IMG/VR virus record: IMGVR_UViG_3300042892_003674 | Length of the DNA: 15,930 nt | Origin: a virus | Lineage: Duplodnaviria; Heunggongvirae; Uroviricota; Caudoviricetes | Direction: 5' to 3' (one strand) | Part shown: one piece after another, positions 1-15,930 of the stretch | How positions within the stretch are numbered: the stretch's first letter is position 1 | How the letters are laid out: each line of letters begins with the position of its first letter | Program-made: the position numbers and the translations under genes | Notes under the pieces: generated by a model | The model's input: the letters and a program-made list of their open reading frames with translations, nothing else | Told to the model about the DNA's origin: nothing | Database searches by the model: none

Positions 1-3000
1 TAATACTATTAGGACCATTACCTAGTGCTTCATTTCCAATAACAATTTCATTTATAGTATTATTATTAAGTGAACTTGTAAATCTACCTATAAATATAGA
101 GTTATCTGCACCTGTTAAATCAATATTAGAAGTTCCATAATAAAGACCTGCCCACATACCTACTCCAATATTATTACTACCTACTCCAATATTACCCAGT
201 GCGCCATATCCAAGTGCAGTATTCATATCTGCAGTAGCAATAGTACCTATACCTATTGAGAATCCACTTCCTCCAGAAGGTCCCAAACTCCAAGAGAATG
301 GACCTGGCACTGCATTAAATCTAGTAGTAGTACTTGTAAGTAAAACACCTCTTCTTTTTAATGTTACTGAACTAACTGTACCACCCGCACCAACAACGAT
401 TGTAGCAGTTGGATATTCACCTGCGTCATTACTAGGTGCAGACCAAAAAGTACCACCACCAGACCATTGTAACCTAACATCTGTGTATGTACCTGGTGTA
501 TAACCAGATCCAGGTGAGAATGTAGCAGATAGTGTAAGTATTCCAGTTGATGCACTTGATAATGCGTAGCCTCCAAGTCCAACACTCCAAAATCCGGTAT
601 AGTATCTCAATGATGAAATACCAACTGATGTATTACGATCTCCAATTGAATTATATTGTAATGAATTTTGACCAAGTGCAACACTACCATAAGCAGTTGT
701 ATTTGAAAACAACGAATTTTGACCAAGTGCAATATTATTATTACCTGTTGTATTATTATGTAATGATTGTAAACCAAGTGCAGTATTCAAAGAACCAGTT
801 GAATTATTACGTAATGAGTATTGTCCAATTGCAATATTATTATTACCTGTTGTATTATTATATAATGACAATATACCAATTGCAGTATTTTGATAACCAT
901 TTGTATTAAAATATAATGATAGATAACCAAGTGCGACATTTTGATAACCCGTTGAATTAGTATATAATGAATTAAAACCAAGTGCAATATTATTATTACC
1001 TATTGTATTTGAATATAATGATTGATAACCAATTGCAGTATTATAAACTCCACCTGTATTTGAATATAATGATCGGTAACCAACTGCAGTATTGGCAAAA
1101 CCTGTCGTGTTAAAAAGTGATTGATAACCAATTGCTGTATTATTAGAACCAAGTGTATTAAACTTTAATGTTTCGTGTCCAATTGCAGTATTATAATTAC
1201 CAGTTGTATTTAATTCTAATGCGCTAGTTCCAACTGCAACACTACCATCAATTGAGATTAAAGATATAATACCTATTTCAAATCCCGCACCAGTGCCACC
1301 GAGATCACCATTATTTACTGTAAAAACTGTTGTAGTATCTAAAAAACCTGATCCCGGTGTTGTTAGTTCTACATAAGTAATAACTCCACTACCATCGACT
1401 TCTATATACACGGTAGGAGCGGATGTAAAGGTACTACTACCAGATAACCATTGTAATTCAACATCATAATACTCACCACCAACATATCCACTACCTGGAG
1501 TAAAACCAGTTGTATCTAGTACTACACCAGATGATTGACTATATAATGCAAAATCCCCTATTGCAACATTACTACCACCAATTGAATTTGACTGTAATGA
1601 ATTATAACCAACTGCGGTATTACGAGAACCAATTCTATTGTTAAATAATGAACTTAATCCAACTGCGGTATTACGAGAACCAGTTGTATTATAAAAAATT
1701 GAAGTATGACCAATTGCAGTATTTTGAGAACCGGTTGTATTACTAAATAAAGTATTAGAACCAATTGCAGTATTGGTAACACCTGTTGAATTAGTATATA
1801 ATGCAGCATAACCATTTGCGGTATTATCACGTCCTGTTATATTTGTAAGTAATGCTTGAACACCAATTGCAGTATTATTATACCCAGTTGTATTTGAATA
1901 TAATGATGACCAACCAACTGCAGTATTATAGAAACCAACTGTATTTGAATATAATGATGCCCAACCAACTGCAGTATTATAGAAACCAGTTGTATTAGAA
2001 TATAGTGACGCATAACCATTTGCAGTATTATTATAACCCGTTGTGTTTAAATATAATGCAAGTGCTGCATTTGCGGTATTTTGATAACCCGTTGAATTAG
2101 TATATAATGCAGCATAACCATTTGCAGTATTCAAATATCCAATTGTGTTTGAATATAATGCGGCATAACCATTTGCAGTATTATTATAACCCGTTGTATT
2201 AAAAGCCAATGATACATAACCAATTGCAGTATTATTATAACCCGTTGTGTTTGAAAATAATGAGATTGCACCAACCGCTGTATTATAACTAGCAGTTGCA
2301 CTAGTTCCTAATGAATTACGACCAATTGCAGTATTATAATCACCAGTTGTATTTGATCCCAATGTTGCGTAACCAATTGCGGTATTAGAAGTGCTGGAAA
2401 TATTAGCAAGTAATGCTTGATATCCAAATACAGTATTACCTTTTCCTCTTGAATCATTATAAACATTTCCATAATTATCGGCTATTAAAGAAACTGTCCC
2501 AGCGGTTGATGAAACAACAAATCTACCATCTGCGGCAGTACCAGTACCTATATTTACATAACCAGTTCTATAAATATTTGATGTTGTATCATATGCATAG
2601 TTAGTAGTTCCTTCTAAATAAAAAGATGATGTTCCACCTATTCCTGATGGGCCTGTCGCACCTGTAGTACCAGATGTACCTGAAGAACCACTAGAACCAG
2701 ATGTACCTGAAGAACCAGACTTACCACTTGAACCGGAACTTCCAGATGTACCTGAAGAACCACTAGAACCAGATGTACCAGAAGAACCACTAGAACCAGA
2801 ACTTCCAGATGTACCTGAAGAACCACTAGAACCAGATGTACCCGAAGAACCACTTGAGCCGGAACTTCCAGATGTACCTGAAGAACCACTTGAGCCGGAA
2901 CTTCCAGATGTACCTGAAGAACCAGATGTACCATCAACACCATTTACCCCAGATAAACCTGATGTACCAGAAGAACCTGAACTACCAGATGTACCTGAAG

Positions 3001-5524
3001 AACCAGATGTACCAGAAGAACCAGACTTACCACTTGAGCCGGAACTTCCAGATGAACCAGAACTACCAGATGTACCTGAAGAACCACTAGAACCAGATGT
3101 ACCTGAAGAACCAGATGATCCACTAGAACCAGAAGTACCTGAACTTCCAGAAGAACCAGATGAACCAGAAGTGCCCGAACTTCCAGATGATCCACTAGAA
3201 CCAGATGTACCAGAAGAACCAGATGTACCAGATGAACCAGAACTACCAGATGTACCTGAAGAACCAGATGTACCAGAAGAACCAGACTTACCACTTGAGC
3301 CGGAACTTCCAGATGAACCAGAACTACCAGATGTACCTGAAGAACCACTAGAACCAGACGTACCAGAAGAACCAGATGTACCACTAGAACCAGATGAACC
3401 AGAAGTACCCGAACTTCCAGATGATCCACTAGAACCACTAGAACCAGAACTACCAGATGTACCTGAAGAACCAGATGATCCACTAGAACCAGACTTACCA
3501 CTTGAACCGGAACTTCCAGATGAACCAGAAGAGCCAGATGTACCACTAGAACCAGAAGTTCCACTACTACCAGACGAACCAGAAGAACCAGAAGTGCCCG
3601 AACTTCCAGATGATCCACTAGAACCAGATGTACCAGAAGAACCTGAAGAACCACTAGAACCAGAAGTTCCACTACTACCAGAAGAACCAGATGTACCACT
3701 ACTACCAGAAGAACCAGATGTACCACTACTACCAGAGCTACCAGATGAACCAGAACTACCAGATGTACCTGAAGAACCACTAGAACCAGAAGTTCCACTA
3801 CTACCAGAAGAACCAGATGAACCAGAACTACCAGAACTACCAGAACTACCAGAAGTACCTGAGGAACCACTAGAACCAGAAGTTCCACTTGTTCCTGATG
3901 CACCATTTACACCATTTATACCACTAGTTCCGGATGAACCACTACTTCCAGATGTACCAGAGCTACCTGAAGAACCACTAGAACCAGATGTACCAGAACT
4001 TCCAGATTTACCAGAAGAACCAGAAGAACCACTAGAACCAGATGTACCTGAACTTCCAGAGCTTCCAGATGTACCAGAGCTACCAGAAGTACCAGAGCTA
4101 CCAGAAGTACCAGAGCTACCAGATGAACCGGAACTTCCAGAGCTACCAGAAGAACCAGATGTACCAGAGCTACCAGAAGTACCTGAACTTCCAGAAGAAC
4201 CAGATGAGCCACTAGAACCAGAAGAACCAGATGAGCCACTAGAACCAGAAGAACCACTAGAACCAGATGTACCTGAACTTCCAGAGCTTCCAGATGTACC
4301 AGAGCTACCAGAAGTACCAGAGCTACCAGAAGTACCAGAGCTACCAGATGAACCGGAACTTCCAGAGCTACCAGAAGAACCAGATGTACCAGAGCTACCA
4401 GAAGTACCTGAACTTCCAGAAGAACCAGATGAGCCACTAGAACCAGAAGAACCACTAGAACCAGATGTACCTGAACTTCCAGAGCTTCCAGATGTACCTG
4501 AACTTCCAGATGTACCTGAACTTCCAGATGAACCGGAACTTCCAGAGCTACCAGAAGTACCTGAACTTCCAGAAGAACCAGATGTACCTGAACTTCCAGA
4601 TGAACCGGAACTTCCAGAGCTACCAGAAGAACCAGATGTACCAGAGCTACCAGAAGTACCTGAACTTCCAGACGAACCAGATGTACCTGAACTTCCAGAT
4701 GAGCCGGAACTTCCAGAGCTACCAGAAGTACCTGAACTTCCAGAAGAACCAGATGTACCTGAACTTCCAGAAGAACCAGATGTACCTGAACTTCCAGATG
4801 AACCAGATGTACCTGAACTTCCAGATGAGCCGGAACTTCCAGAGCTACCAGACGAACCAGATGTACCAGAAGAACCAGATGTACCACTACTACCAGACGT
4901 ACCAGAAGAACCAGAGCTACCAGAAGTACCTGAACTTCCAGAAGAACCAGAGCTACCAGAAGAACCAGATGAACCAGAGCTACCAGAAGTACCTGAACTT
5001 CCAGAAGTACCAGAGCTACCAGAAGTACCTGAACTTCCAGATGAACCGGAACTTCCAGAGCTACCAGAAGAACCAGATGTACCAGAAGAACCAGATGTAC
5101 CACTACTACCAGACGTACCAGACGAACCAGATGAACCACTTGATCCAGAAGAACCACTGCTACCAGATGTACCGGAACTACCAGAAGAACCTGAAGTTCC
5201 ACTTACACCAGTTGCTATCCAGTTAGTACCTGTACTTTCTACATATAAAATTTGATATTGTGTAAGAGTCCTTGTTGTAACTCCGTCTATTGTTTGTGAA
5301 GATGTTGTAGCAACGGTTATTGTACCAGATCCACTATTTTTGATAAAATATATTTTTCCTGCCACACCAACAGCAGTTGGTAATGTAACAGTAAAAGTTC
5401 CACTTGTACAGTCAATTGTTTGATCATCTACACCTATTGGATAGGTTGTAGTAACTGCCTTATATGGGAATGTAATTCCACCTAAGGATATAAGTCCTTT
5501 TCGTAGTATAAACTCGTTTGCCAT
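1..5524 (-). CDS. Giant fibre-like protein, 3'-partial (>=1841 aa): N-terminal beta-sandwich, about 858-aa Gly-Ser/Thr collagen-like repeat, 17-aa NTAxG beta-helical repeats with two GSGY-type insertions
   Basis: Not in the ORF track because no stop falls inside the window. ATG at 5524-5522 translates MANEFILRKGLISLGGITFPYKAVTTTYPIGVDDQTIDCTSGTFTVTLPTAVGVAGKIYFIKNSGSGTITVATTSSQTIDGVTTRTLTQYQILYVESTGTNWIATG, then (GSS/GTS)n. I read the non-repeat parts (5524-5210 and 2640-2) codon by codon without an in-frame stop. The repeat was spot-checked and has the same frame and Gly register at both ends. The last residues in the window are ...NSIFIGRFTSSLNNNTINEIVIGNEALGNGPNSI. The 'TVTLP..G..Y.IKN.G.GTITV....QTIDG....L.......V.S.G.NW' segment resembles beta-domains of phage long tail fibres (recognised by eye). 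Confidence 0.92.
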   Translation of the reverse strand, partial: MANEFILRKGLISLGGITFPYKAVTTTYPIGVDDQTIDCTSGTFTVTLPTAVGVAGKIYFIKNSGSGTITVATTSSQTIDGVTTRTLTQYQILYVESTGTNWIATGVSGTSGSSGSSGTSGSSGSSGSSGSSGSSGTSGSSGTSGSSGTSGSSGSSGSSGSSGSSGTSGSSGTSGSSGTSGSSGSSGSSGSSGSSGSSGTSGSSGSSGTSGSSGTSGSSGTSGSSGSSGSSGSSGSSGTSGSSGSSGTSGSSGSSGTSGSSGSSGTSGSSGSSGSSGSSGTSGSSGSSGTSGSSGTSGSSGSSGSSGSSGSSGTSGSSGSSGTSGSSGSSGSSGSSGTSGSSGTSGSSGSSGTSGSSGSSGSSGSSGSSGSSGTSGSSGTSGSSGSSGSSGSSGSSGTSGSSGTSGSSGTSGSSGSSGTSGSSGSSGSSGSSGSSGSSGSSGSSGSSGTSGSSGTSGSSGSSGSSGSSGSSGTSGSSGTSGSSGTSGSSGSSGTSGSSGSSGSSGKSGSSGTSGSSGSSGSSGTSGSSGSSGTSGINGVNGASGTSGTSGSSGSSGTSGSSGSSGSSGSSGSSGSSGTSGSSGSSGTSGSSGSSGSSGSSGTSGSSGSSGTSGSSGSSGTSGSSGSSGSSGTSGSSGSSGSSGTSGSSGSSGSSGTSGSSGTSGSSGSSGSSGSSGKSGSSGSSGSSGTSGSSGSSGSSGSSGSSGTSGSSGSSGTSGSSGTSGSSGSSGTSGSSGSSGSSGSSGKSGSSGTSGSSGTSGSSGSSGTSGSSGTSGSSGSSGSSGTSGSSGSSGSSGTSGSSGSSGSSGTSGSSGSSGTSGSSGSSGSSGSSGKSGSSGTSGSSGTSGSSGSSGTSGLSGVNGVDGTSGSSGTSGSSGSSGSSGTSGSSGSSGSSGTSGSSGSSGTSGSSGSSGSSGTSGSSGSSGTSGSSGSSGKSGSSGTSGSSGSSGTSGTTGATGPSGIGGTSSFYLEGTTNYAYDTTSNIYRTGYVNIGTGTAADGRFVVSSTAGTVSLIADNYGNVYNDSRGKGNTVFGYQALLANISSTSNTAIGYATLGSNTTGDYNTAIGRNSLGTSATASYNTAVGAISLFSNTTGYNNTAIGYVSLAFNTTGYNNTANGYAALYSNTIGYLNTANGYAALYTNSTGYQNTANAALALYLNTTGYNNTANGYASLYSNTTGFYNTAVGWASLYSNTVGFYNTAVGWSSLYSNTTGYNNTAIGVQALLTNITGRDNTANGYAALYTNSTGVTNTAIGSNTLFSNTTGSQNTAIGHTSIFYNTTGSRNTAVGLSSLFNNRIGSRNTAVGYNSLQSNSIGGSNVAIGDFALYSQSSGVVLDTTGFTPGSGYVGGEYYDVELQWLSGSSTFTSAPTVYIEVDGSGVITYVELTTPGSGFLDTTTVFTVNNGDLGGTGAGFEIGIISLISIDGSVAVGTSALELNTTGNYNTAIGHETLKFNTLGSNNTAIGYQSLFNTTGFANTAVGYRSLYSNTGGVYNTAIGYQSLYSNTIGNNNIALGFNSLYTNSTGYQNVALGYLSLYFNTNGYQNTAIGILSLYNNTTGNNNIAIGQYSLRNNSTGSLNTALGLQSLHNNTTGNNNIALGQNSLFSNTTAYGSVALGQNSLQYNSIGDRNTSVGISSLRYYTGFWSVGLGGYALSSASTGILTLSATFSPGSGYTPGTYTDVRLQWSGGGTFWSAPSNDAGEYPTATIVVGAGGTVSSVTLKRRGVLLTSTTTRFNAVPGPFSWSLGPSGGSGFSIGIGTIATADMNTALGYGALGNIGVGSNNIGVGMWAGLYYGTSNIDLTGADNSIFIGRFTSSLNNNTINEIVIGNEALGNGPNSI
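170..2437 (-). repeat. 17-aa (51-nt) coding repeats, consensus N-T-A-[IVN]-G-x-x-[SA]-L-x-x-N-T-T-G-x-x; probable beta-helix/beta-roll shaft
   Basis: Manual translation gives 18 units at ~1520-2437 (e.g. NTAIGYVSLAFNTTGYN, NTANGYAALYSNTIGYL, NTAVGWSSLYSNTTGYN), 14 units at ~542-1243, and about 2 degenerate units below 223. Exact DNA copies include a 35-mer at 1785-1819 = 2091-2125 (offset 6x51) and a 32-mer at 938-969 = 2078-2109. Confidence 0.88.
2636..5209 (-). repeat. Coding Gly-X-Y tandem array (9-nt period, 286 triplets, X/Y mostly Ser/Thr)
   Basis: Gly codons at 5207, 5108, 3965, 3902, 3542, 3128 and 2642 all fall at position = 5 mod 9. The only non-S/T residues seen are GVS at the start, five Lys (GKS), GINGVNGAS (~3893-3922), GLSGVNGVD (~2930-2959) and terminal GATGPSGIG. 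Confidence 0.93.
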
Positions 5525-5531
5525 TTAATTA

Positions 5532-5555
5532 TCTTTTTTTCACTTTCCAAAAAGA
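5532..5555 (-). promoter_or_regulatory. Putative leader RNA hairpin 7 nt upstream of the fibre-gene ATG
   Basis: Minus strand reads TCTTTTT-GGAAAGTGAA-AAAAAGA-TAATTAA-ATG: a 7-bp stem with a 10-nt purine-rich loop. The stem is AU-rich and weak, and no U-tract follows it. Confidence 0.35.
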
Positions 5556-5610
5556 AGTTAAACTATATATAAAAAGTAACTTATTCTTTTGTGTTAAATA
5601 AGATTATAAT

Positions 5611-5892
5611 TTAATATCCGGCAAAGGTATGTTTAGGATTATTTACTTCAATTTTACTTTCAAATTCGATTTCTTGATCACTCATTACATCATAATGGTA
5701 TCCATCTGCATAAATTGGTTCTGTTATTACATTACCTTCATTATCATAAGTTCCATATTGTAATGTGATTAAACCTATCTCAACAACTGCTTGAATACCT
5801 TGTTGGTAATTACCTTCTAAATCAATTACATTCTTTGTAATTAAGTCAGCTATTGCAGTTTCTTTGTTTGTGTATTTAAGTTTGTATATCAT
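5611..5892 (-). CDS. Small acidic hypothetical protein (93 aa), possible fibre assembly chaperone/adaptor
   Basis: ORF MIYKLKYTNKETAIADL...NNPKHTFAGY, TAA at 5613-5611. I prefer the ATG at 5892 over the track's TTG at 5901. It follows the 1166-aa gene in the same orientation. Function is inferred from position only. Confidence 0.8.
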   Translation of the reverse strand: MIYKLKYTNKETAIADLITKNVIDLEGNYQQGIQAVVEIGLITLQYGTYDNEGNVITEPIYADGYHYDVMSDQEIEFESKIEVNNPKHTFAGY

Positions 5893-5931
5893 ATTATGCA
5901 AAAATTAAATTTTTTTTATTTTTAAATCTTC

Positions 5932-8900
5932 CTACAAGGTTGTTAGATTTATACATTCAACATCTGTTAATTGTTTTTTCCACAGTGCAATCATTTCAAA
6001 TTTTGCAGTTGCATTTTCGGTTAAACTACCAAAATCGAATTTATCTAAAGTAGCAGTAAAATCAGTTGATGATGGATATGTATAGTTCCAAAATAATACT
6101 CCATTAATAAAAACTTTTATAGATGTTTGTGAATACTTGATAATTATGTTTTTATTTGTTTGTAAATTAGGTGATACAACACTTGAATTACTAACACTTA
6201 TGTTATTTTTTCTTACACCATATTCACATCGACCATCAACACCAACACAAAAAATAGAAATTTGATTATTAGTTGATAAACTATTACTTATTCTTAATAT
6301 AACACCTCTTTGTAATTGATATCCTTTAACTAAAATAGTTCCCTCTGTTTGTCCTATTAAACTAGTGGCACTAGTTTTAGAAATAACATCAGCATTTCTT
6401 GTTACCGCAGCAGTTGTTGTTGGGATGTACGAGGTTTCATTGGTAAACAACGGAGTTCCTAATTCTAATTGTGCACCCCATGCATCAAAATCAACAACTT
6501 CACCATTTGCTAGAAATCCTATTTCACTATTAGAACTCCCAGCAGAACTACCAGTTGTAAAAATAACAATAACCCTATACCAACCATTACCGTAATCACT
6601 TAGTAAACTACTAATAATAGTTGGTCTTCCAGTTGTAATTGTACCAGTTGGGGTTGTTGTGATTGTTAAGTTAGTTAAATTAACTACTCCCCTATATTCA
6701 CCATTATTCGGTGAACTAACATTGTTATTATAGTAAAAGCTAAAGGTTTTATTATTGGTTGTTACACTTTTTTTAACAAATACCGATGCTGTATAGGTAG
6801 TGGAACTTGCAAGATTTAAACCTAATCTTCTCCAATATCCGTTAATGTTAGTTATGTTTATATTGTTAGCCGTTGGAATACCATTTGGCCCTATACTTAC
6901 ATTTGGTGTGACGGTCGTATTTAAACCACCAGTCCATAAATTTATTTGTTCTGACTGAATAACTAAATTAGTTCTTTGTGGCTCAACTAATATACTTGGA
7001 CAACTTCCATTTGAATAATCTATTCTTGGTACGTTTTGTCTGTTTGTTGTTGGAAAATAGTCTTTTGGTTGTGTTCCTTGAACCAATTGTGCACCCCATA
7101 CTAGAATACCCGATGTTCCATCTCCTGTGTAATTATCTGTTGTTGCTGATTGTCTTACTACAATAAGATAACTAAGGTTTTGCCCACCCCCTAAATTTGC
7201 TGTGTAAATAGAACATCTATACCAACCGTTGCCTACATTCTCAATACTTGGTGTAAATCCTGATGATGTGCCTGAAATAGTACCATTAGAAAGATTGAAA
7301 TAAATACTTCCACCACTAACACCTCCACCAACACCAAATGATAAAAAATTGTACCCATCTGCTTTTGCATATACTGACAAAACACCTTGACCTGAAAAAT
7401 TAAACTGTTGGAAAATTCTATGCTGATTTAATGTTGTATCTGGAATTATTTTATCTGCTGTTAAAGTTCCTATAGGAGAATTTGCCACATTTGTAGATAT
7501 TGATAATATGTTTTGTCTAGCCCAAAGTCCAGTATTGTCAAACTCTTCACTTCTTTGAAATAAATTATAAGGTACTTGTTCAATAAATCCCTCAGCATTT
7601 ACTCTTGTTGCAGTAGTTGCTCTTGTAACAACCATATCTCCATTTAATTCAAAGGGTACTACACTATAAAGTTTACCTTCTTTATATGTATTTGCAGTCA
7701 CCATCAAAGAAGCACTTTCTAATAAATATTGATTACTAATAACATTTAATTGTCCTTCTAAGCAACTTTCTGCCTCAAATAAACCTAAGTCCTCTAATAC
7801 TCTTGATTTAAAAACATTCTTGATCTCGGTTGTTGATGGTGTATATCTTGATTTAGATGCAGTATATATTGTTGAAATCTCTGTTGCAGTTAAAACTCTG
7901 TTATATATTGCTACCTGACCTATATTTCCTTTGAATGGTTCAGTTCCTGTATTAGTCCAACCTCCTAATCTAAAATTATTATCAGTAGTTGTTTTTTGTT
8001 GACCGGCATCTGTTCGTTGAGATTGCAAACTACCATTTAAGTAAATCAACATCGTTGTATTACCACCTGAAAATGATGAAACAAAACTCATAAAATACCA
8101 AACATTATTAGCTAAATTTGGTGTTGCAAATAAACTTCGTTGAACCCCACCTATGCTATTTGAAAAATGAATATCTCCATTACTTCTAAACGCAAAATAA
8201 GGTAAATACATACCCATAATCATATTATAAGCGTTTATAGATTGTGTTCTTTTAACCCATACAGTCCAAGTGGTACTAGACGGTAGAGTATTAAAAGAAG
8301 TAGTCACTACATCATTTACTCCATCAAAAGAAAACGCTCTTTGACCATCACTAACAAGAGCAACACCATTATTTAATGTACCATTATTGTTATTACCACT
8401 CATATCATATGCAGTACTTGCAGTTGCAACCTGTTTGTCTGTGTTACTACCATCTAATGATAAAGCTAAAGAATCTGTTGGTATAAATCGTTGAAGACCA
8501 GCGTAGTAGTTTTGTAAGATTTCTTGTTCAGTAAGAGATCTGTTGTAGATTTGGGTTGTATAAAATTCTCCCTGAAAGTAAGCAGCGGTGTTATTTCTAG
8601 GTATTGCATGTCCTATAGTATAAAGACTATCTGTTCTTAAAACTACATTAACGGTATTTGTAGATTGTAATATATTATTAAGATAAACTTTACTTTCTTT
8701 ATTATATCTATTTACTACAACACAAACGGGATTACCAGTCATAGTGTTCCCGATACTTTGTTGGTTTACAAGAGCAATACCTCCTATCCATACTCCTCCA
8801 CTCCAAATTAGTATGGTTGGTTGTGAGCTGTATCCACTTGAAAAATAATAATGAGTTTTATTTGATAAAGTTTTAAACCACAGTACAATACAGAAATCAT

Positions 8901-9432
8901 CAGTTATTAAACCAGGTGTACCTAAAGTCACGTAATCATCCACACCATCAAAAACAATACTTCCACCTCCGGAAGTACTAAACGAAGGACCATTCACTAA
9001 TGTTCCATTATTTCCATTACCACTTAAATCTGTCCAAGTAGTTCCATTCTTTGGATATGAAGGTGTATAAGCAGCATCTAAATTTAGAACTAATCCACTT
9101 GTTACAATATTTGGATAATCCATATTAGTACAAAGCATTGTGCTTGATGAGTTAAAGAAATTTAAAGCCCCAGAAATTGTTGTAATTCCACTACCTCCTA
9201 ATTGATTAGACAATGTAATTAAATTTGCATCATTACCCGCTACAAAAACTGATGGACTTCCTACACCATTACTAACATATACTGTATAACCACCAACATT
9301 AGGAGTTTTACCATTATAGAAATTAGTGATGTTAGTTGGTCCGTATCCACCATTATTTACACCAATTGCAAAGTTTGATGTTTTAATAGAATTTGACTGA
9401 GTTGCATTAGTATATTTAATTGGATTTGCCAT
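5932..9432 (-). CDS. Multidomain virion lectin-like protein (1166 aa): N-terminal domain, 2 LamG/ConA-like domains, 2 carbohydrate-binding-module-like repeats, C-terminal degenerate ConA-like domain
   Basis: Long ORF, ATG to TAG. LamG-type motifs 'IVTSGLVLNLDAA...W.DLSGNGNNGTLVNGP...FDGVDDY' and 'IYNRSLTEQEILQNY', with a second copy ending 'IYNRVLTATEISTIY'. The C-terminal half has two 'NL...SE......GNGWYR....WGAQL..G....(Y/F)PT' units, typical of beta-sandwich CBM-like modules of phage spike/fibre proteins (by eye). Confidence 0.9.
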   Translation of the reverse strand: MANPIKYTNATQSNSIKTSNFAIGVNNGGYGPTNITNFYNGKTPNVGGYTVYVSNGVGSPSVFVAGNDANLITLSNQLGGSGITTISGALNFFNSSSTMLCTNMDYPNIVTSGLVLNLDAAYTPSYPKNGTTWTDLSGNGNNGTLVNGPSFSTSGGGSIVFDGVDDYVTLGTPGLITDDFCIVLWFKTLSNKTHYYFSSGYSSQPTILIWSGGVWIGGIALVNQQSIGNTMTGNPVCVVVNRYNKESKVYLNNILQSTNTVNVVLRTDSLYTIGHAIPRNNTAAYFQGEFYTTQIYNRSLTEQEILQNYYAGLQRFIPTDSLALSLDGSNTDKQVATASTAYDMSGNNNNGTLNNGVALVSDGQRAFSFDGVNDVVTTSFNTLPSSTTWTVWVKRTQSINAYNMIMGMYLPYFAFRSNGDIHFSNSIGGVQRSLFATPNLANNVWYFMSFVSSFSGGNTTMLIYLNGSLQSQRTDAGQQKTTTDNNFRLGGWTNTGTEPFKGNIGQVAIYNRVLTATEISTIYTASKSRYTPSTTEIKNVFKSRVLEDLGLFEAESCLEGQLNVISNQYLLESASLMVTANTYKEGKLYSVVPFELNGDMVVTRATTATRVNAEGFIEQVPYNLFQRSEEFDNTGLWARQNILSISTNVANSPIGTLTADKIIPDTTLNQHRIFQQFNFSGQGVLSVYAKADGYNFLSFGVGGGVSGGSIYFNLSNGTISGTSSGFTPSIENVGNGWYRCSIYTANLGGGQNLSYLIVVRQSATTDNYTGDGTSGILVWGAQLVQGTQPKDYFPTTNRQNVPRIDYSNGSCPSILVEPQRTNLVIQSEQINLWTGGLNTTVTPNVSIGPNGIPTANNINITNINGYWRRLGLNLASSTTYTASVFVKKSVTTNNKTFSFYYNNNVSSPNNGEYRGVVNLTNLTITTTPTGTITTGRPTIISSLLSDYGNGWYRVIVIFTTGSSAGSSNSEIGFLANGEVVDFDAWGAQLELGTPLFTNETSYIPTTTAAVTRNADVISKTSATSLIGQTEGTILVKGYQLQRGVILRISNSLSTNNQISIFCVGVDGRCEYGVRKNNISVSNSSVVSPNLQTNKNIIIKYSQTSIKVFINGVLFWNYTYPSSTDFTATLDKFDFGSLTENATAKFEMIALWKKQLTDVECINLTTL

Positions 9433-9451
9433 AACTTATATATTATAATCC
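9430..9451 (-). promoter_or_regulatory. Conserved stop-spacer-start junction motif, copy 1
   Basis: GGATTA-TAA-TATATAAGTT-ATG; matches the copies at 11113-11134 and 13526-13547. Confidence 0.6.
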
Positions 9452-11059
9452 GTATCTTGCTCTTGTTGCGTTATATATTATCGAGATCTCAGTTTGACTT
9501 AGTGATCTATTATAAAAGAATACTTCTGAAATATTACCATTAAATGGATAATCTCCGTTACCATAAGCACCTATTGTTACGTTACCTGTTGAAACGTCTA
9601 AAGGTATAGAATATGCGTTGGAATTTTCTTGTGTTTCGTTAATATATAATATTTTATTAACCTGATTATATGTTAATGTTATAAGATACCATTTACCCAA
9701 TATCAAGTCAGTTGTACCAGAGACTAAAATACCATTGATTCTGTGTTGTATTCTTCTACCACTTTGCCATATCTCAAATGGTCCAATTCCATTGTTACTA
9801 TTATTATTTTTCATAAAAATCTCTTTCACTGCGGATATCGACAGATTAACCCAAAATCCAGCACTAAATTGGTTAGTATTAAAGGTAGAACTATTACCAC
9901 AATTAATATAATCATTTACTCCATCAAATCTCCAAGAACCATCTGCACTTCCAACATATTGAGTTCCATTTAATAGTACTCCATTATTAGCATTACCACT
10001 AATATCATAAGCAGTTGTAGGTGATGTGGCATATAAATTAGTATTTTGTGCATCCAGTGAAAGAACTAAACCATTGGTTGGTATAAATCTTTGAAGACCT
10101 GCATAGTAATTTTGTAGTATTTCTGTTGCTGAAAGAGCCCTATTATAATACATAAATCGTTGAATATTTCCAGGACCACCTGCGGATGAACATCTTAAAT
10201 TTGGTGTAATACTACCACTTCTATTCCAAGATGTTGCACCAACATCCCAGACTTCGGAATCTCTTAACACACCATCAATATAAGTTTTTACATTCCCTTG
10301 ACTATCAAATGTCAATGCGGTTTCATACCATTGATTGGGTAGATAAACATCGTACATTATATTTGCACCGGCATTAGAATAAATTAGCCAAGCATAAGTG
10401 TCAGTTGCCCAAACAGCGTTTCTATAAAAATAAATTAAATTATTTGTAGTTCCACCATCTCTAAAAAAAATAAGTTGAGTAGTGTTATTAAATGGTGGTG
10501 TTTTAAGTTTAATAATAAATGTACCATTTTGTGGTGATCCACTCGTAAATGTATTTATTGGTAAGGTGCAAACATCATCAACACCGTCAAATACAATACT
10601 CCCATAATTTGACGAATCAAAAGTTGGTCCATTAACTAAAGTAGAATTAATATTATTACCACTTAAATCATTCCATCCTGTCCCGCCTTTAGGATAAGAA
10701 GGTACAAATCCTGCATCCAAATTAATAGTAAGTCCCGAAGTCACGATTGAAGGATAGTTTGTATTAGCAACAGTCATATTACTCTGAGAATTGATCCACA
10801 CCAAAGCTTCTGCAACAGTTGAAACATTGCCTCCCAGAATTTTAGTTATATTAACTAAATCAGTATCGTTCTGTGGAGCATAAATTGATGGTCCATTTGA
10901 AGATTTATTGATATAGATGGTATATCCACCATTTATTGGACAGATACCGGTATAAAATTCGGTTAGATCCGCTGGTGTTGCATTGACTCCTATATTAAAC
11001 CCACCAGATTTAATTGAGTTTACTGACACGGGAGTGCTAAATTTTACTATGTTTCCCAT
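9443..11059 (-). CDS. Tandem LamG/ConA-like lectin domain protein (538 aa), paralog of the N-terminal half of the 1166-aa protein
   Basis: ATG to TAA. Shared N-terminal domain (MGNIVKF..NSIK..F.IGVN), two LamG-like domains ('GLTINLDAG...WNDLSGN', 'GLVLSLDAQ...YDISGN'), a junction EILQNYYAGLQRFIPT identical to the paralog, and C-terminus YNRSLSQTEISIIYNATRARYGL. Confidence 0.92.
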   Translation of the reverse strand: MGNIVKFSTPVSVNSIKSGGFNIGVNATPADLTEFYTGICPINGGYTIYINKSSNGPSIYAPQNDTDLVNITKILGGNVSTVAEALVWINSQSNMTVANTNYPSIVTSGLTINLDAGFVPSYPKGGTGWNDLSGNNINSTLVNGPTFDSSNYGSIVFDGVDDVCTLPINTFTSGSPQNGTFIIKLKTPPFNNTTQLIFFRDGGTTNNLIYFYRNAVWATDTYAWLIYSNAGANIMYDVYLPNQWYETALTFDSQGNVKTYIDGVLRDSEVWDVGATSWNRSGSITPNLRCSSAGGPGNIQRFMYYNRALSATEILQNYYAGLQRFIPTNGLVLSLDAQNTNLYATSPTTAYDISGNANNGVLLNGTQYVGSADGSWRFDGVNDYINCGNSSTFNTNQFSAGFWVNLSISAVKEIFMKNNNSNNGIGPFEIWQSGRRIQHRINGILVSGTTDLILGKWYLITLTYNQVNKILYINETQENSNAYSIPLDVSTGNVTIGAYGNGDYPFNGNISEVFFYNRSLSQTEISIIYNATRARYGL

Positions 11060-11115
11060 TAAAAATATATTTTTTTGGATGTAAATTGTATAGATGTAGT
11101 ATATTTAATTGACAT
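11059..11115 (-). CDS. Unannotated 18-aa mini-ORF (MSIKYTTSIQFTSKKIYF); vestigial gene or translational coupler
   Basis: ATG at 11115-11113 is preceded by the same 10-nt spacer motif as two real genes. Its TAA (11061-11059) overlaps the ATG of the 538-aa gene as TAATG. Confidence 0.5.
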   Translation of the reverse strand: MSIKYTTSIQFTSKKIYF

Positions 11116-11134
11116 AGTTTATATATTATATTCC
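11113..11134 (-). promoter_or_regulatory. Conserved stop-spacer-start junction motif, copy 2
   Basis: GGAATA-TAA-TATATAAACT-ATG (ATG of the 18-aa mini-ORF). Confidence 0.55.
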
Positions 11135-11830
11135 GAATCTTGATCTGGTTGCATTGAAGTTTTTTAGTACTTCTGTTGCAGAGAGTGCTCTATTGTATAT
11201 TTGAACATTTGCTATATTACCACTCCAATATTGTCCACTAGTACCCCATTGGTAAATACTCCCACCAATATTTATACCATCTGTTCTATTTTGATTTATT
11301 GATGCGTCTATCCAAGTTGTAGTATTAACCAAAATACTATTTCTATAAAAATAATATTTATTGTCTATATGATTCCAGACTAAAAATATGTTTACAAAAT
11401 CATTTATGTTTACAAAAAAATTAGTAATTGAGGGTATTGGACCATTTGTATGTCCACCACCACTATTCCAATATACAAAATCTAAAGATGTATTTTTTTG
11501 CATTATTTGCCACTCCCAATTAGATGGACCTTTTCCAATAAAGGGAAAATGAGCGGCTAATGAATTTGGTCTAACATATAAAGAAATTGAAACACTATTT
11601 GTGTTGTTCCAACTTAAATCATAACCTGTTGAATAATAATCATTAGTTCCATCAAACCCAATACTTCCCTTATTAGCAGAACTAAAACTAGGTCCATTTG
11701 TTAAAGTACCATTATTTCCTCTACCACTTCTATCAAACCAAGTCGTAGATCCGGACTGATATGATTTAGTATTAGCTGCATCTAAATGTAGAACTAATCC
11801 ATCTGTTATTATTGTTGGTCCTGTAAACAT
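11126..11830 (-). CDS. Single-domain LamG/ConA-like lectin protein (234 aa)
   Basis: MFTGPTIITDGLVLHLDAANTKSY...W.DRSGRGNNGTLTNGP...FDGTNDY ... IYNRALSATEVLKNFNATRSRFGI. ATG to TAA, 3 nt after the upstream stop. Confidence 0.92.
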   Translation of the reverse strand: MFTGPTIITDGLVLHLDAANTKSYQSGSTTWFDRSGRGNNGTLTNGPSFSSANKGSIGFDGTNDYYSTGYDLSWNNTNSVSISLYVRPNSLAAHFPFIGKGPSNWEWQIMQKNTSLDFVYWNSGGGHTNGPIPSITNFFVNINDFVNIFLVWNHIDNKYYFYRNSILVNTTTWIDASINQNRTDGINIGGSIYQWGTSGQYWSGNIANVQIYNRALSATEVLKNFNATRSRFGI

Positions 11831-11833
11831 ATT

Positions 11834-12571
11834 TTATAAATTAAATCTTGATTTTGTGGCATTATAATTTTGTAAGACTTCTTGTGCGGTTAGTACCCTG
11901 TTATATTTTTTAAATATTGAAAAATTTCCATTTATTGAAAAAGAACTATTACCTATCCAACCATCTCCATAAAAATATAATGAACCTATTCCTAAAGGTA
12001 AGTTTGCATTACCTACACTTGTAACACCTCCAGTAATATTATGTGATATAATATTTTGATTTAAACCACCATCAGTATAGTAACCCAATTGAGTTGATGT
12101 GGCCCAAACAACTAGTTGGTGTGTATTTCCATCAGCTATAGAAAATCCTACTGTGGCAGAGGTTGTCCCACTAGTACCTGCTAATAGTGAAAATCCTGTT
12201 GGTGTTACTGAAATATTATATTGACCACTTCCATTCCATGGTTTTGAAATTAATCTACCTACAGTATCACTAGTCTTGACCCATAATTCTATACACAGAA
12301 TAGAACTTCCAATACTACCATCAGCAGTCCAGGCATGTATATTATTCGTCCCACCTCCAGAAAGGATTACATAGTCATTCACTCCATCGAAAGCAATACT
12401 TCCTCCATTTAAAGAATTGAAAGTAGGTCCATTTGTTAAAGTACCATTATATCCATTACCACTTCTATCATACCAAGTACTTCCTGTACCAGAATATGAT
12501 TTAACATTTCCTGCATCTAAATGAAGAACTAATCCACTTGTAACTATACTTGGTCCTCCTAATGTACCCAT
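11834..12571 (-). CDS. Single-domain LamG/ConA-like lectin protein (245 aa)
   Basis: GPSIVTSGLVLHLDAGNVKSY...WYDRSGNGYNGTLTNGP...FDGVNDY ... YNRVLTAQEVLQNYNATKSRFNL. ATG lies 1 nt after the upstream stop. Confidence 0.92.
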   Translation of the reverse strand: MGTLGGPSIVTSGLVLHLDAGNVKSYSGTGSTWYDRSGNGYNGTLTNGPTFNSLNGGSIAFDGVNDYVILSGGGTNNIHAWTADGSIGSSILCIELWVKTSDTVGRLISKPWNGSGQYNISVTPTGFSLLAGTSGTTSATVGFSIADGNTHQLVVWATSTQLGYYTDGGLNQNIISHNITGGVTSVGNANLPLGIGSLYFYGDGWIGNSSFSINGNFSIFKKYNRVLTAQEVLQNYNATKSRFNL

Positions 12572-12572
12572 A

Positions 12573-12836
12573 TTATATTTCTTCGATTGATGAAGTCCAC
12601 TCTTCTGTTGATAAAATAATTATTATTTCATCATATGTATAAGGACCTTCCTTAGTTATTAGTGATGATACACACTCTGGTTCATTTCCATCCCATTTAA
12701 CGAATGTTTTTGTTTCATCAGTAGATTTTCTAACAGTTTCTGCAGATGTCTCTAATACCTGTGTAAAATCGATTTGTGATAATTCTGATACATTAAATAT
12801 CATAAAGTTTCTGTTTTCGTAATTTTGTGTTTCCAT
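12573..12836 (-). CDS. Small acidic hypothetical protein (87 aa) embedded in the lectin gene array
   Basis: ATG to TAA ORF METQNYENRNFMIFNVSELSQIDF...EEWTSSIEEI. Glu/Thr-rich and tightly packed between two LamG genes. Confidence 0.85.
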   Translation of the reverse strand: METQNYENRNFMIFNVSELSQIDFTQVLETSAETVRKSTDETKTFVKWDGNEPECVSSLITKEGPYTYDEIIIILSTEEWTSSIEEI

Positions 12837-12853
12837 ATATTTATATTATTTTT

Positions 12854-13528
12854 TTACAATCCATACCTTGATTTTATGGCATTAAAGTTCTGTAATACTT
12901 CTGTTGCAGAGAGTGCTCTATTGTATCCTTGTACACTTGCTATTCTGCCATTAAAAGGAAATTGACCGGTTGCTCTTTGTCCTATTCGAGCTGTTGAATT
13001 CCAACCACCTACTGTAAATGCTTGTGTAGAAGATGCTACTTCAAATACTCCATTTACGTATATAGAGGTTACATTGTTGTTAACAATTCCTGTAATATGA
13101 TACCATTTATTTGCTTCTATGTTAGTATTACTAATAATTGAAAAATTATTCACGTCGGATGTTTGGGTTGCGAATAGTTGAATTCTATTGTTTGATAAAG
13201 AAAGCCAATTGTCTTGTCCATTTGCTGATGGACCGTATATTACTTGGGTACCTGTTACAATGGATGTATTTACAAAAGCACATATAGTTAAAGGATTTGT
13301 TAAATTTATAATAGTACTTATATCGACATAGTCATTCACACCATCAAATCCAATACTTCCCATATTAGCAGAACTAAAACTAGGTCCATTTGTTAAAGTA
13401 CCATTATTTCTATTACCACTCAAATCACTCCAAGTTGCACCTGTTCCAGTATATGACTTTGGATTAGCAGCATCTAAATGAAGAATTAATCCACTTGTTA
13501 CAATTTGAGGTCCTCTATAAAATCCCAT
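12854..13528 (-). CDS. Single-domain LamG/ConA-like lectin protein (224 aa)
   Basis: MGFYRGPQIVTSGLILHLDAANPKSY...WSDLSGNRNNGTLTNGP...FDGVNDY ... YNRALSATEVLQNFNAIKSRYGL. ATG to TAA. Confidence 0.92.
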   Translation of the reverse strand: MGFYRGPQIVTSGLILHLDAANPKSYTGTGATWSDLSGNRNNGTLTNGPSFSSANMGSIGFDGVNDYVDISTIINLTNPLTICAFVNTSIVTGTQVIYGPSANGQDNWLSLSNNRIQLFATQTSDVNNFSIISNTNIEANKWYHITGIVNNNVTSIYVNGVFEVASSTQAFTVGGWNSTARIGQRATGQFPFNGRIASVQGYNRALSATEVLQNFNAIKSRYGL

Positions 13529-13547
13529 AATTTATATATTATATTAC
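13526..13547 (-). promoter_or_regulatory. Conserved stop-spacer-start junction motif, copy 3
   Basis: GTAATA-TAA-TATATAAATT-ATG. Confidence 0.6.
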
Positions 13548-15930
13548 TCTCGTACCGACTTTTACTTTCCAAGTACCAGTTGTTATTGTTGCTCTTAATC
13601 TAATATCTGTGCCTGAAATATCTACACTAAACTCTATACCAGCAGTTGATGCTACTAAATCAGTTGTCGATGTATCCGTGTAAGCTACTGTAGATCCATT
13701 AGTAACGGACATTACTGTTCCTGCTCTATATGCACCAGTTATTGAATTACTTACATAATAATCAAAGAATACTCCTGTTGATGATGTTACACCATAAGGT
13801 ATAGTCATAACTGTACTTGTTGTTGCTAATCCGGATACATTTGCACTATTCATATAAAGATCACCCGCGATAGTAACTATCTCATCAGTATTTACTGTTA
13901 AAATAGGAGTACCAGAAATATCACTAACTTGAAATACATCACCGATTAAAGTATCTGTAACAGAGAACAACTGACCTGATGCTCCTAATATATTAAAGGC
14001 TGTTCCTGTTGCACCTAGTACAGTACCTATCTCTAACTTATTACCATTAAAGGTTAAGTTACTATTCGCTAGAGCCGATGTAGTTGATGACCCTGTTGCA
14101 GTTAGTATTCTATAGTCTGCTGGAGTTATAATTGCATTAAAACCTGTCCCTGATGTTCCACTTGTACCAGATGAACCAGAACTACCAGATGTACCAGATG
14201 AACCAGAGCTACCAGATGAACCACTAGAACCTGAACTTCCAGAAGAACCAGAAGTACCAGAGCTACCAGACGAACCAGAAGAACCAGAAGTACCAGAAGA
14301 ACCAGATGTACCAGAACTACCAGACGAACCAGATGTACCAGAACTACCAGATGAACCACTAGAACCTGAACTTCCAGAAGAACCAGATGTACCAGACGAA
14401 CCAGAAGAACCAGATGAACCACTTGTACCAGATGAACCTGAACTACCAGATGAACCTGAACTACCAGATGTACCACTAGAACCAGATGTACCAGAACTAC
14501 CAGATGAACCACTAGAACCTGAACTTCCAGAAGAACCAGATGTACCACTTGTACCAGATGAACCAGAACTACCAGATGTACCAGATGAACCACTTGTACC
14601 AGATGTACCAGATGAACCACTTGTACCAGATGAACCAGAACTACCAGATGAACCCGAAGTACCAGAAGAACCACTTGTACCAGATGAACCAGAAGAACCA
14701 GAGCTACCAGATGAACCAGAAGAACCACTTGTACCAGATGAACCACTAGAACCAGAGCTACCAGAACTACCAGATGAGCCTGAACTTCCAGATGTACCAG
14801 AGCTACCAGATGAACCAGAGCTACCAGATGAACCAGAGCTACCAGATGAACCACTTGTACCAGATGAACCAGAACTACCAGATGTACCTGAACTACCAGA
14901 TGAACCCGAAGTACCAGAAGAACCACTTGTACCAGATGAACCAGAAGAACCAGAGCTACCAGATGAACCAGAAGAACCACTTGTACCAGATGAACCACTA
15001 GAACCAGAGCTACCAGAACTACCAGATGAGCCTGAACTTCCAGATGTACCAGAGCTACCAGATGAACCAGAGCTACCAGATGAACCAGAGCTACCAGATG
15101 AACCACTTGTACCAGATGAACCAGAACTACCAGATGAACCAGATGATCCAGAAGAACCAGATGTACCTGAACTACCAGAAGTACCTGAACTACCAGATGA
15201 ACCAGATGTACCTGAACTACCTGAACTTCCAGATGACCCAGAAGAACCAGAAGTACCTGAACTACCAGATGTACCAGAAGAACCAGATTTACCTGAACTA
15301 CCAGAGCTACCAGAACTACCAGATGAGCCACTAGAACCTGAACTACCAGATGTACCAGAAGAACCAGATGTACCAGATGAGCCGCTAGAACCAGAACTAC
15401 CAGAAGTTCCACTAGAACCAGAAGTACCTGAACTACCAGAAGTTCCACTAGAACCAGAAGTACCAGAGCTACCAGAAGAACCAGAACTTCCAGACGAACC
15501 AGATGAGCCACTAGAACCAGAAGTACCAGAGCTACCAGATGAACCACTAGTACCAGACGAACCACTAGAGCCTGAACTTCCAGAAGAACCACTAGAACCT
15601 GAACTTCCAGACGAACCAGATGTACCAGACGAACCAGATGTACCAGATGAGCCGCTAGAACCAGAACTACCAGATGAACCACTAGAACCAGAAGTACCAG
15701 AAGAACCAGATGTACCAGACGAACCAGAAGTACCTGAACTACCAGATGAGCCACTAGAACCAGATGAACCTGAACTTCCAGATGTACCAGATGAACCACT
15801 AGAACCAGATGAACCTGAACTTCCAGATGTACCAGATGAACCACTAGAACCAGATGAACCTGAACTTCCAGATGTACCAGATGAACCACTAGAACCTGAA
15901 CTTCCAGAAGAACCAGATGTACCAGACGAA
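13539..15930 (-). CDS. Second Gly-Ser/Thr repeat fibre-like protein, 5'-partial (>=796 aa), with C-terminal beta-rich domain
   Basis: The track's 143-aa ORF (TTG at 13970) is only the tail. The frame stays open upstream as (GSS/GTS)n-GTGFNAIITPADYRILTATGSSTTSALANSNLTFNGNKLEIGTVLGATGTAFNILGASGQLFSVTDTL...RAGTVMSVTNGSTVAYTDTSTTD...TWKVKVGTRVI*. The same frame and Gly register hold at 14148 and 15921. Confidence 0.92.
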   Translation of the reverse strand, partial: SSGTSGSSGSSGSSGSSGTSGSSGSSGSSGSSGTSGSSGSSGSSGSSGTSGSSGSSGSSGSSGSSGTSGSSGTSGSSGTSGSSGSSGSSGSSGSSGTSGSSGTSGSSGSSGSSGSSGSSGSSGSSGTSGSSGSSGTSGSSGSSGSSGSSGSSGSSGTSGSSGTSGSSGTSGSSGTSGSSGSSGSSGTSGSSGTSGSSGSSGSSGSSGSSGSSGKSGSSGTSGSSGTSGSSGSSGSSGSSGTSGSSGSSGTSGSSGTSGSSGSSGSSGSSGSSGTSGSSGSSGSSGSSGSSGSSGTSGSSGSSGSSGSSGSSGSSGTSGSSGSSGSSGSSGSSGTSGSSGTSGSSGSSGTSGSSGSSGTSGSSGSSGSSGSSGSSGSSGTSGSSGSSGSSGSSGSSGSSGTSGSSGSSGSSGSSGSSGTSGSSGTSGSSGSSGSSGTSGSSGTSGTSGSSGTSGSSGSSGTSGTSGSSGSSGSSGSSGSSGTSGSSGTSGSSGSSGSSGSSGTSGSSGSSGSSGTSGSSGSSGSSGSSGSSGTSGSSGSSGTSGSSGTSGSSGSSGSSGTSGSSGSSGSSGSSGSSGSSGTSGSSGSSGTSGTSGTGFNAIITPADYRILTATGSSTTSALANSNLTFNGNKLEIGTVLGATGTAFNILGASGQLFSVTDTLIGDVFQVSDISGTPILTVNTDEIVTIAGDLYMNSANVSGLATTSTVMTIPYGVTSSTGVFFDYYVSNSITGAYRAGTVMSVTNGSTVAYTDTSTTDLVASTAGIEFSVDISGTDIRLRATITTGTWKVKVGTRVI
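14142..15930 (-). repeat. Coding Gly-X-Y tandem array (>=198 triplets), containing a 252-nt-period near-tandem duplication and 3 x 45-nt tandem copies
   Basis: Gly codons at 14148, 14166, 15903 and 15921 are all at position = 0 mod 9. 14638-14884 is identical to 14890-15136. A perfect 45-nt unit starts at 15751, 15796 and 15841. Confidence 0.92.

Follow-up and report, generated by a model that had tools for sequence, protein, structure and literature searches.

How can neighbouring genes of a phage share nearly identical DNA at their ends when the coding sequence between those ends is barely alignable? The question is raised by a tandem array of genes with LamG modules in IMG/VR record IMGVR_UViG_3300042892_003674, a stretch of 15,930 nucleotides from a tailed phage (Caudoviricetes), which we analysed as a whole and refer to as the window. 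An earlier sequence-only reading had noted the repeated ends and suggested that recombination or gene conversion at constant flanks exchanges the interiors, or cores, of the modules. We find good comparative evidence that cassettes are replaced at the flanks; it consists of mosaic alleles, breakpoints in or beside the flanks, discordant histories of flanks and cores, and N-terminal flanks that in some paralogs are younger than their cores. Taking these observations together, we consider it probable that the LamG array of this huge lake-water phage undergoes flank-mediated core replacement by general homologous recombination.

A hidden Markov model (HMM) built from the paralogs identifies seven full LamG (Laminin_G_3) modules across five co-oriented genes, the same count as had been given from the sequence alone. 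All sizeable genes of the window are on the minus strand. Three of the five are small and carry a single module each: g224 (12854..13528, with its N flank at 13325-13528, core at 12950-13324 and C flank at 12857-12949), g245 (11834..12571; N flank 12368-12571, core 11930-12367, C flank 11837-11929) and g234 (11126..11830; N flank 11633-11830, core 11222-11632, C flank 11129-11221). The other two carry two modules each, namely g538 (9443..11059), with 538a at 10079-10756 and 538b at 9446-10084 (found by both Pfam and the paralog HMM), and g1166 (5932..9432), with 1166a at 8479-9123 and 1166b at 7837-8484 and a tail-protein-like C-terminal part.

Near-identical strains differ in several of these interiors. 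We compared the window with L017, a contig from the European Nucleotide Archive (ENA), with L018, a contig from the Joint Genome Institute (JGI) that is a separate assembly, and with a third assembly. In all three, g224 has at most one amino-acid change and is followed by genes of 87, 244 and 220 amino acids, where the window has 87, 245 and 234; in L017 and L018, g234 is exchanged for the 220-residue gene, whose core is unrelated. Over 11881-14093, which covers the C-terminus of the fibre gene, g224, g87 and g245, the identity of window and L017 is 0.997 (7 mismatches in ~2.2 kb), and g245 is the same in L017 except for its last ~50 nucleotides. In a first replaced block (11222-11880, the end of g245 with the N flank and core of g234) identity is 0.43 in the core and 0.58-0.75 in the flank, with indels, and it returns to 0.97-0.98 at 10747-11221 (the g234 C flank and the start of g538; 0.98 over 11026-11221). 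A second block at 10150-10746 corresponds to a divergent allele of 538a, aligned without gaps at 0.52-0.72, and is followed by ~0.94 at 9987-10149 (the 538a C flank and the start of the 538b N flank). The third, at 9472-9986, replaces the rest of the 538b N flank and the 538b core (0.46-0.72, with indels); beyond it, identity is 0.99 over 8982-9471, which holds the 538b C flank, the beginning of g1166 and the N flank of 1166a. The fourth, at 8520-8981, replaces the 1166a core (0.44-0.71), and 7839-8519 (1166a C flank and 1166b) is again at 0.97-0.99 save for a 22-nucleotide dip. Four of the seven modules are thus affected, in L018 as in L017, with core nucleotide identities of 0.43-0.46 and indels for g234, 538b and 1166a and of ~0.58 for 538a, and every edge of a divergent block (11880, 11222, 10746, 9986/9472, 8981 and 8520) is situated within an N or C flank or next to one.

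The incoming cores have no counterpart in the array. At the g234, 538b and 1166a positions, no L017 core exceeds 33% identity to any of the seven window cores, and the nearest relative of the L017 220-residue gene in a collection of 5.8 billion proteins is 66% identical; from these values we infer that the replacements came from outside the local array, from lineages that are not closely sampled. The L017 538a core retains 53% amino-acid identity to the window allele. The sequence-only reading had likened the array to an antibody repertoire, a comparison that we do not retain, since nothing suggests programmed switching within one genome and the replacement cores are not taken from the local array. 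We also note that the exact g234 protein is absent from the same protein collection, where the best entry is 98% identical (P0121, from an estuary run), and that the window g224 is present.

Logan contigs of four sequencing runs, placed on window positions 7700-14100, provide independent samples. In run X13, from another study (2016), one contig of 3653 nucleotides matches 7700-8524, 8934-9508, 9951-10156 and 10655-11197 at ~96-97% and spans three replaced cores. It has 394 different letters at the 1166a core, where the window has 409, and 469 different letters at the 538b core, against 442 in the window; L017 has ~439 letters at the 1166a-core site, as read from BLAST coordinates. Because the core lengths differ in the window, L017 and X13, at least three alleles exist at 1166a, and at least three are found at two array positions (1166a and 538b). 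Chimeric joins had been expected in metagenomes if cores are exchanged, and the X13 contig does join conserved blocks across other cores. A 1319-nucleotide contig of run X2, from an estuary, covers g234 and most of g245 at ~98% and supports the arrangement of the window. Contigs of run X1 are 100% identical to the window, yet end at the flanks, as repeats would predict. Identical joins turn up in several assemblies, which makes chimeric assembly an unlikely cause. We did not count apparent X13 joints between paralogous flanks as chimeric alleles, for their sides measure 23-33 nucleotides and most likely belong to other LamG genes, and bins without cover in X11 and X13 were not used as evidence. 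One X13 contig joins 11885 to 12371 over the g245 core, a mere hint that this core, too, may be replaced in some strains, although L017 has it unchanged.

Mosaics of the same kind are present in other lineages. The related phages L013 and L015 have syntenic flanks that are 95-100% identical, and their cores at array positions 1 and 3 are ~45% identical. A core type that we call T1, the type of g224, occupies position 3 in L013 (5714-6310) but position 1 in L015 (10021-10617), the two cassettes being 86.9% identical over 601 nucleotides. L016 and L019 form a third mosaic pair: they are 87-99% identical until ~56 nucleotides into the gene after their 88-residue gene and ~45% identical from there, where islands of 68-90% mark several ends of modules and junctions between genes. 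A swap in gene order between L016 and L019 was considered and is not supported, the proteins being only 36% identical either way. Array size among relatives ranges from 2 single-module genes up to 11, the latter in L023, where 775-8861 of a 71-kb contig holds 11 tandem single-module LamG genes with mutually unrelated cores, the largest array seen.

Within the window, the flanks of the small genes are alike at the DNA level. The segments 11649-11718 and 13341-13410 are identical at 68/70 nucleotides and include an exact run of 48 (11671-11718 = 13363-13410) in the N flanks of g234 and g224; this run contains a 27-mer that recurs exactly at 11689, 12424 (12424-12450) and 13381, that is, in all three small genes. 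The C flanks of g234 and g224 share an exact 31-nucleotide run (11168-11198 = 12896-12926, 31/31). A motif, gcatctaaat..agaa.taatcca, which on the coding strand reads G-L-x-L-x-L-D-A, is found in four genes (at 9074, 11778, 12513 and 13470). All of these counts, first given in the sequence-only reading, were reproduced. Exact common runs of at least 27 nucleotides are confined to the three small genes, every other pair sharing at most 18. The paralog cores have 8-24% amino-acid identity, so that the description of them as barely alignable is accurate.

It had also been claimed that identity at synonymous sites exceeds what protein constraint needs. We counted identical codons at positions with an identical amino acid, the N flank comprising ~66 codons. 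The g234/g245/g224 pairs use the same codon at 38/42, 37/45 and 36/48 such positions in the N flank, where codon usage predicts 22-24, and module 1166a does so at 26-31 of ~40 (~20 expected). For these four modules the claim therefore stands, as it does for the C flank in the g234-g224 pair alone (17/23 against 11.9 expected), but it does not extend to the N flanks of 538a, 538b and 1166b, which are near expectation in most pairings. In the cores, codon identity is at expectation, the synonymous sites being saturated. The N-flank excess survives the use of column-specific codon frequencies from other genomes (p = 5e-6 to 5e-3). When modules of different genomes are compared, this statistic reaches 0.50 where 0.45 is expected, so that the flank is under no general constraint at the nucleotide level. 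Judged by their codons, the N flanks of some paralogs (g224, g245, g234 and 1166a) are younger than their cores.

We then compared the histories of flanks and cores across 43 full modules, with cores clustered at a threshold of at least 45% identity. T1 cores are found in 8 genomes and cores of type T2, the type of g234, in 3; 23 cores are singletons. In the core tree, T1, T2 and T3 form clades with supports of 99/98, 100/99 and 99/95, and genome labels are distributed at random (26 changes against a shuffled mean of 25.9). The tree of N-flank DNA requires 19 changes of genome label against a shuffled mean of 25.8, and none of 200 shuffles was as low, so that the flanks cluster by genome. In this tree the T1 flanks do not stay together; they fall with neighbours from the same genome or the same position that have other core types, examples being the L015 T1 flank with that of L013 T8 (99/96) and a pair from L009 (84/91). 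Forcing the T1 flanks into one clade is rejected by the approximately unbiased (AU) test (p = 6e-5, difference in log-likelihood 135), so that the incongruence of flank and core trees that core swapping had been predicted to leave is indeed observed.

Codons within T1 orthologs tell a similar story. The window g224 and its L009 counterpart agree at 104/125 residues of the core, with the same codon at 83/101 positions (50 expected), and at 39/62 residues of the N flank, with the same codon at 21/38 (18 expected); between the T1 modules of L013 and L015, codons are the same at 94/108 core positions and 27/48 flank positions. In these more distant T1 pairs the core is younger than the flank. This does not hold for the closest pairs (g224 of the window with L016, L019 and L011), in which the flank shows no greater age than the core.

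What the flanks are is suggested by a predicted structure. The AlphaFold2 model of g224 (predicted local distance difference test, pLDDT, 82.6; predicted template modelling score, pTM, 0.84) is a concanavalin A (ConA)-like jelly roll of 16 strands and one C-terminal helix. In this model the N flank accounts for strands 1-5 and the beginning of strand 6, the C flank for the last long strand and the terminal helix. In a Foldseek search, the model matches lectin-like jelly rolls of various proteins with template modelling (TM) scores of ~0.70 at 13-21% identity, which is similarity at the level of the fold only. In an alignment of 44 sequences, the invariant and nearly invariant columns lie mostly in the N and C flanks. 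Together with the positions of the fold elements, this indicates that the 'framework' at the protein level consists of the conserved ends of the fold. Carbohydrate binding by the LamG modules is a prediction.

From these observations, we hypothesize the following mechanism. The ConA-like/LamG lectin modules form a tandem family between collagen-like fibre genes and a tail-protein-like domain, and each module has conserved elements of the fold in its first ~65 residues (strands 1-5 with the beginning of strand 6) and its last ~31 (final strand and helix). The coding DNA of these flanks would be identical enough for general homologous recombination to use it as homology tracts, whether the partners are co-infecting relatives or paralogs. 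In E. coli the minimal length of homology is ~20-30 bp, and the exact runs of 27-48 nucleotides may be long enough to start recombination. The central core of 120-145 residues, or sometimes the whole module, would be exchanged en bloc, and such exchange would alter the size and order of the array. The cores would set glycan or host specificity, and variation of the host surface would select for many alleles. We stress that this is ordinary recombination at conserved gene ends and no new molecular mechanism. A stronger claim, which we think rather unlikely, is that the nucleotides of the flanks are preserved in their own right as handles for recombination and that the array is a multi-locus cassette platform drawing lectin cores from a pool shared by co-infecting relatives, at a rate far above that of point mutation; the argument on rate is based on four replacements against 0.3% backbone divergence. 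If this were true, the array would be an enzyme-free analogue of antigenic-variation systems acting inside a single protein domain.

Several points weigh against flank-mediated core replacement. No recombination event was observed directly, all of them being deduced from the comparison of assemblies, and no close donor for the L017 220-residue allele is present in the 5.8-billion-protein collection. Four of the seven window modules are without an exact run longer than 18 nucleotides to any paralog. The reverse AU tests, in which positional partners are forced together in the core tree, are not significant (p = 0.13 and 0.06), the cores being short and saturated. Across all modules, flanks of different types are on average as similar between genomes as within one (0.48 and 0.49, respectively, for the N flank), from which we conclude that homogenisation of flanks is patchy and affects some paralogs only. 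This average, together with the greater divergence of g224-type flanks than of the core in more distant genome pairs, is also at odds with the constant framework that the sequence-only reading had envisaged.

An explanation that is hard to separate from ours is that frequent recombination in a freely mixing phage population keeps backbone and flanks uniform, the cores being old allelic lineages under frequency-dependent selection and the flank DNA merely the place where homology exists. The depth of the core types (relatives at 55-80%), the lack of relationship between replacement cores and local cores, and the presence of at least three alleles at two positions all agree with it. It too needs crossovers in the flanks, and by itself it accounts neither for the change in position of the T1 cassette nor for the excess of shared codons among paralog flanks within a genome, and we regard it as unlikely. 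Much less probable still is that no exchange occurs and that flank similarity reflects the constraint of the LamG fold and AT-rich codon bias in old, independently evolving paralogs. The flank motifs are indeed the conserved ends of the family, the N-flank DNA matches Flavobacterium and Synechococcus phages at 75-80%, and 538a and most pairings of 538b and 1166b are at the codon-usage expectation; yet the codon excess in four modules, the abrupt fall between strains from 99.7% to ~45%, the rejection of a single T1-flank clade and the L013/L015 mosaic with T1 at different array positions all contradict this explanation.

Nor do we give much credence to the mosaics being metagenome assembly chimeras at repeated flanks. 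Repeats do confuse assemblers here, for Logan contigs end exactly at flanks, and an odd inverted join of 76 nucleotides is found at the end of L017; however, the 224-87-244-220 gene order is present in three assemblies of different samples, and both the X13 contig across three replaced cores and the X2 contig with the window arrangement of g234 and g245 are single contigs. Programmed diversification is likewise highly improbable, be it through a diversity-generating retroelement (DGR), through an invertase or shufflon, or through some other dedicated enzyme that acts on the flanks. The layout of the array with its repeated flanks resembles cassette systems, and Mtd_N proteins are found near the related array in L022. 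Against this, no reverse transcriptase (RT) was found among the window proteins searched or among precomputed Pfam matches of genes within 10 kb in L009-L023, and the same holds for recombinases and invertases, in line with the earlier view that neither enzyme is needed. In 538a, the sole divergent block that can be aligned, 126 of 215 mismatches involve A, where a DGR would give nearly all, and 89 do not; by codon position, 97 fall on the third and 62 and 56 on the others, a pattern that indicates ordinary divergence and no DGR mutagenesis. The other alleles differ by indels and are unalignable, the only inverted repeats in 5500-8000 are two weak AT-rich pairs, and the copies are all complete, co-oriented genes with no silent partial cassettes.

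We therefore return to flank-mediated core replacement and ask how it relates to known systems. DGRs, as in Mtd of Bordetella phage BPP-1, and invertible segments (Mu G, P1 C and shufflons) vary phage receptor-binding proteins around a constant scaffold; a DGR needs an RT and a template repeat, and an invertible segment needs an invertase and inverted sites. The array resembles both in varying putative receptor-binding proteins around a scaffold and is unlike them in that no RT or invertase was found and the substitution pattern does not fit. In concerted evolution, gene conversion acts on tandem multigene families. Here, some paralogs (g224, g245, g234 and 1166a, the L009 pair and a pair in L014) similarly share synonymous states with saturated variable parts, but homogenisation is partial and not general across arrays.

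The closest precedent is in T-even phages, whose gp38 adhesins have hypervariable segments bounded by glycine-rich motifs that are conserved (Trojet et al. 2011, PMC3157838). According to that paper, which cites Tetart 1996 and 1998, the specificity of adhesins is exchanged when recombination takes place between conserved motifs. As in gp37/gp38, conserved structural-core motifs alternate with hypervariable segments in chimeric (putative) receptor-binding proteins, with no dedicated enzyme; near-identical backbones carry unrelated variable segments (0.997 vs 0.43-0.46 in L017/L018, and likewise in L013/L015, L016/L019 and X13), and breakpoints are in or next to conserved motifs (the window/L017 block edges and L013/L015). 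The fold here is a ConA-like jelly roll, in contrast to the glycine-rich-motif core of gp38; the exchanged unit is a domain interior of ~130 residues or a whole module rather than short loops; and the design, known here from sequence comparison, is repeated at 7 loci in the window phage and 11 in L023. No gp37 or gp38 family is among the Pfam or PHROG matches, and no direct comparison with gp37/gp38 was made. LamG-core exchange is thus a variant of an already described principle, published for T-even phages (PMC3157838), and not the undescribed diversification system that the sequence-only reading had proposed. In marine phages, host-recognition genes in metaviromic islands vary between co-occurring, otherwise near-identical lineages (Mizuno et al. 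2014, PMC3909814), as in our strains; in the sections of that paper used here, the islands are defined by metagenome recruitment and without in-domain breakpoints. Our literature search, whose coverage is incomplete, found no paper on core swapping in LamG arrays of huge phages.

The array illustrates, clearly and in quantifiable form, a way in which huge phages that infect uncultured freshwater bacteria may redirect their host recognition, with whole lectin-domain interiors exchanged at several loci at once and the remaining genome ~99.7% identical. It extends motif-mediated adhesin swapping of the T-even type to a different fold, to crossovers within a domain and to arrays of 7-11 modules. 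LamG cores appear interchangeable at two natural splice points, one behind the FDGxxDY strand and one ahead of the G-x-I...YNR strand, a hypothesis that may be of use in protein engineering and in following phage-host dynamics at strain level through metagenomes.

The surroundings of the array suggest that the lectin modules are probably part of the virion. In coding direction, a Gly-X-Y fibre gene whose end is at 13539 is followed by g224, g87, g245, g234, g538, g1166, a gene of 96 residues and a second long fibre gene. Pfam PF13385 (Laminin_G_3, cutoff 27.6 bits) matches g224 (80.3 bits, E = 2.2e-22), g234 (54.6 bits, E = 1.7e-14), and two stretches each of g538 (98.8 bits) and g1166 (88.3 bits). 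g245 has no Pfam match at E <= 0.01 and is recognised by the paralog HMM (253.7 bits) and by PHROGs 24074 and 8510. The small genes match PHROG 8510, 'virion structural protein', and the C-terminal 632 residues of g1166 match PHROG 5939, 'tail protein' (E = 2.8e-53). By tblastn, homologs at 30-38% are found in Synechococcus phage S-PM2 and Flavobacterium phages, labelled as virion structural or tail-fibre-like. A megablast search of 9400-13600 against 50,697 phage records gave no match, and the IMG/VR search gave relatives at 37% or less only; full-length relatives of g224 at 62-82% are present on many metagenome contigs, and the stretch occurs in lake, estuary and freshwater metagenome runs of 16 studies.

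The small gene g87 (12573..12836, minus strand) lies within the array and has neither a Pfam nor a PHROG match. Genes of 85-89 residues stand alongside LamG arrays in at least six related phage contigs (L009, L014, L015, L016, L019 and L023), and g87 may be an assembly or attachment factor. At the other end of the array, the L017 homolog of g1166 ends after its second LamG module (544 residues, ending ...RYTPSS), and the final 76 nucleotides of that contig (6855-6930) are 100% identical to window positions 5688-5763, inverted, inside the 96-residue gene. Either the tail-protein-like C-terminal part has been detached by a true rearrangement, or the join is an artefact of the contig end; no inverted repeats able to explain the join were found. 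In contrast to the L017 end, the X13 contig runs on into 7700-7833 as the window does.

Three further observations concern the related loci. In L022, two Mtd_N proteins (2108-3835 and 12536-14983) flank a related LamG array, with no RT seen within 10 kb; Mtd_N is the N-terminal domain of Mtd, the DGR target of the Bordetella phage. In L014, a gene of 89 residues (4076-4345) with a weak match to GIY-YIG, a homing-endonuclease type, directly follows the LamG array, and none was seen in the window; homing endonucleases can drive local gene conversion. Finally, two-domain proteins in L016 (2945-5442) and L019 (1650-4141) open with the first LamG strand, GPxIVTSGLVLHLDAxNxKS, continue with ~170-200 unrelated residues (with GDGxSGVYxWG in one pair) and then resume the remaining N flank (DRSGNG..GTL.NGP), an arrangement that looks like a domain inserted inside a LamG flank.

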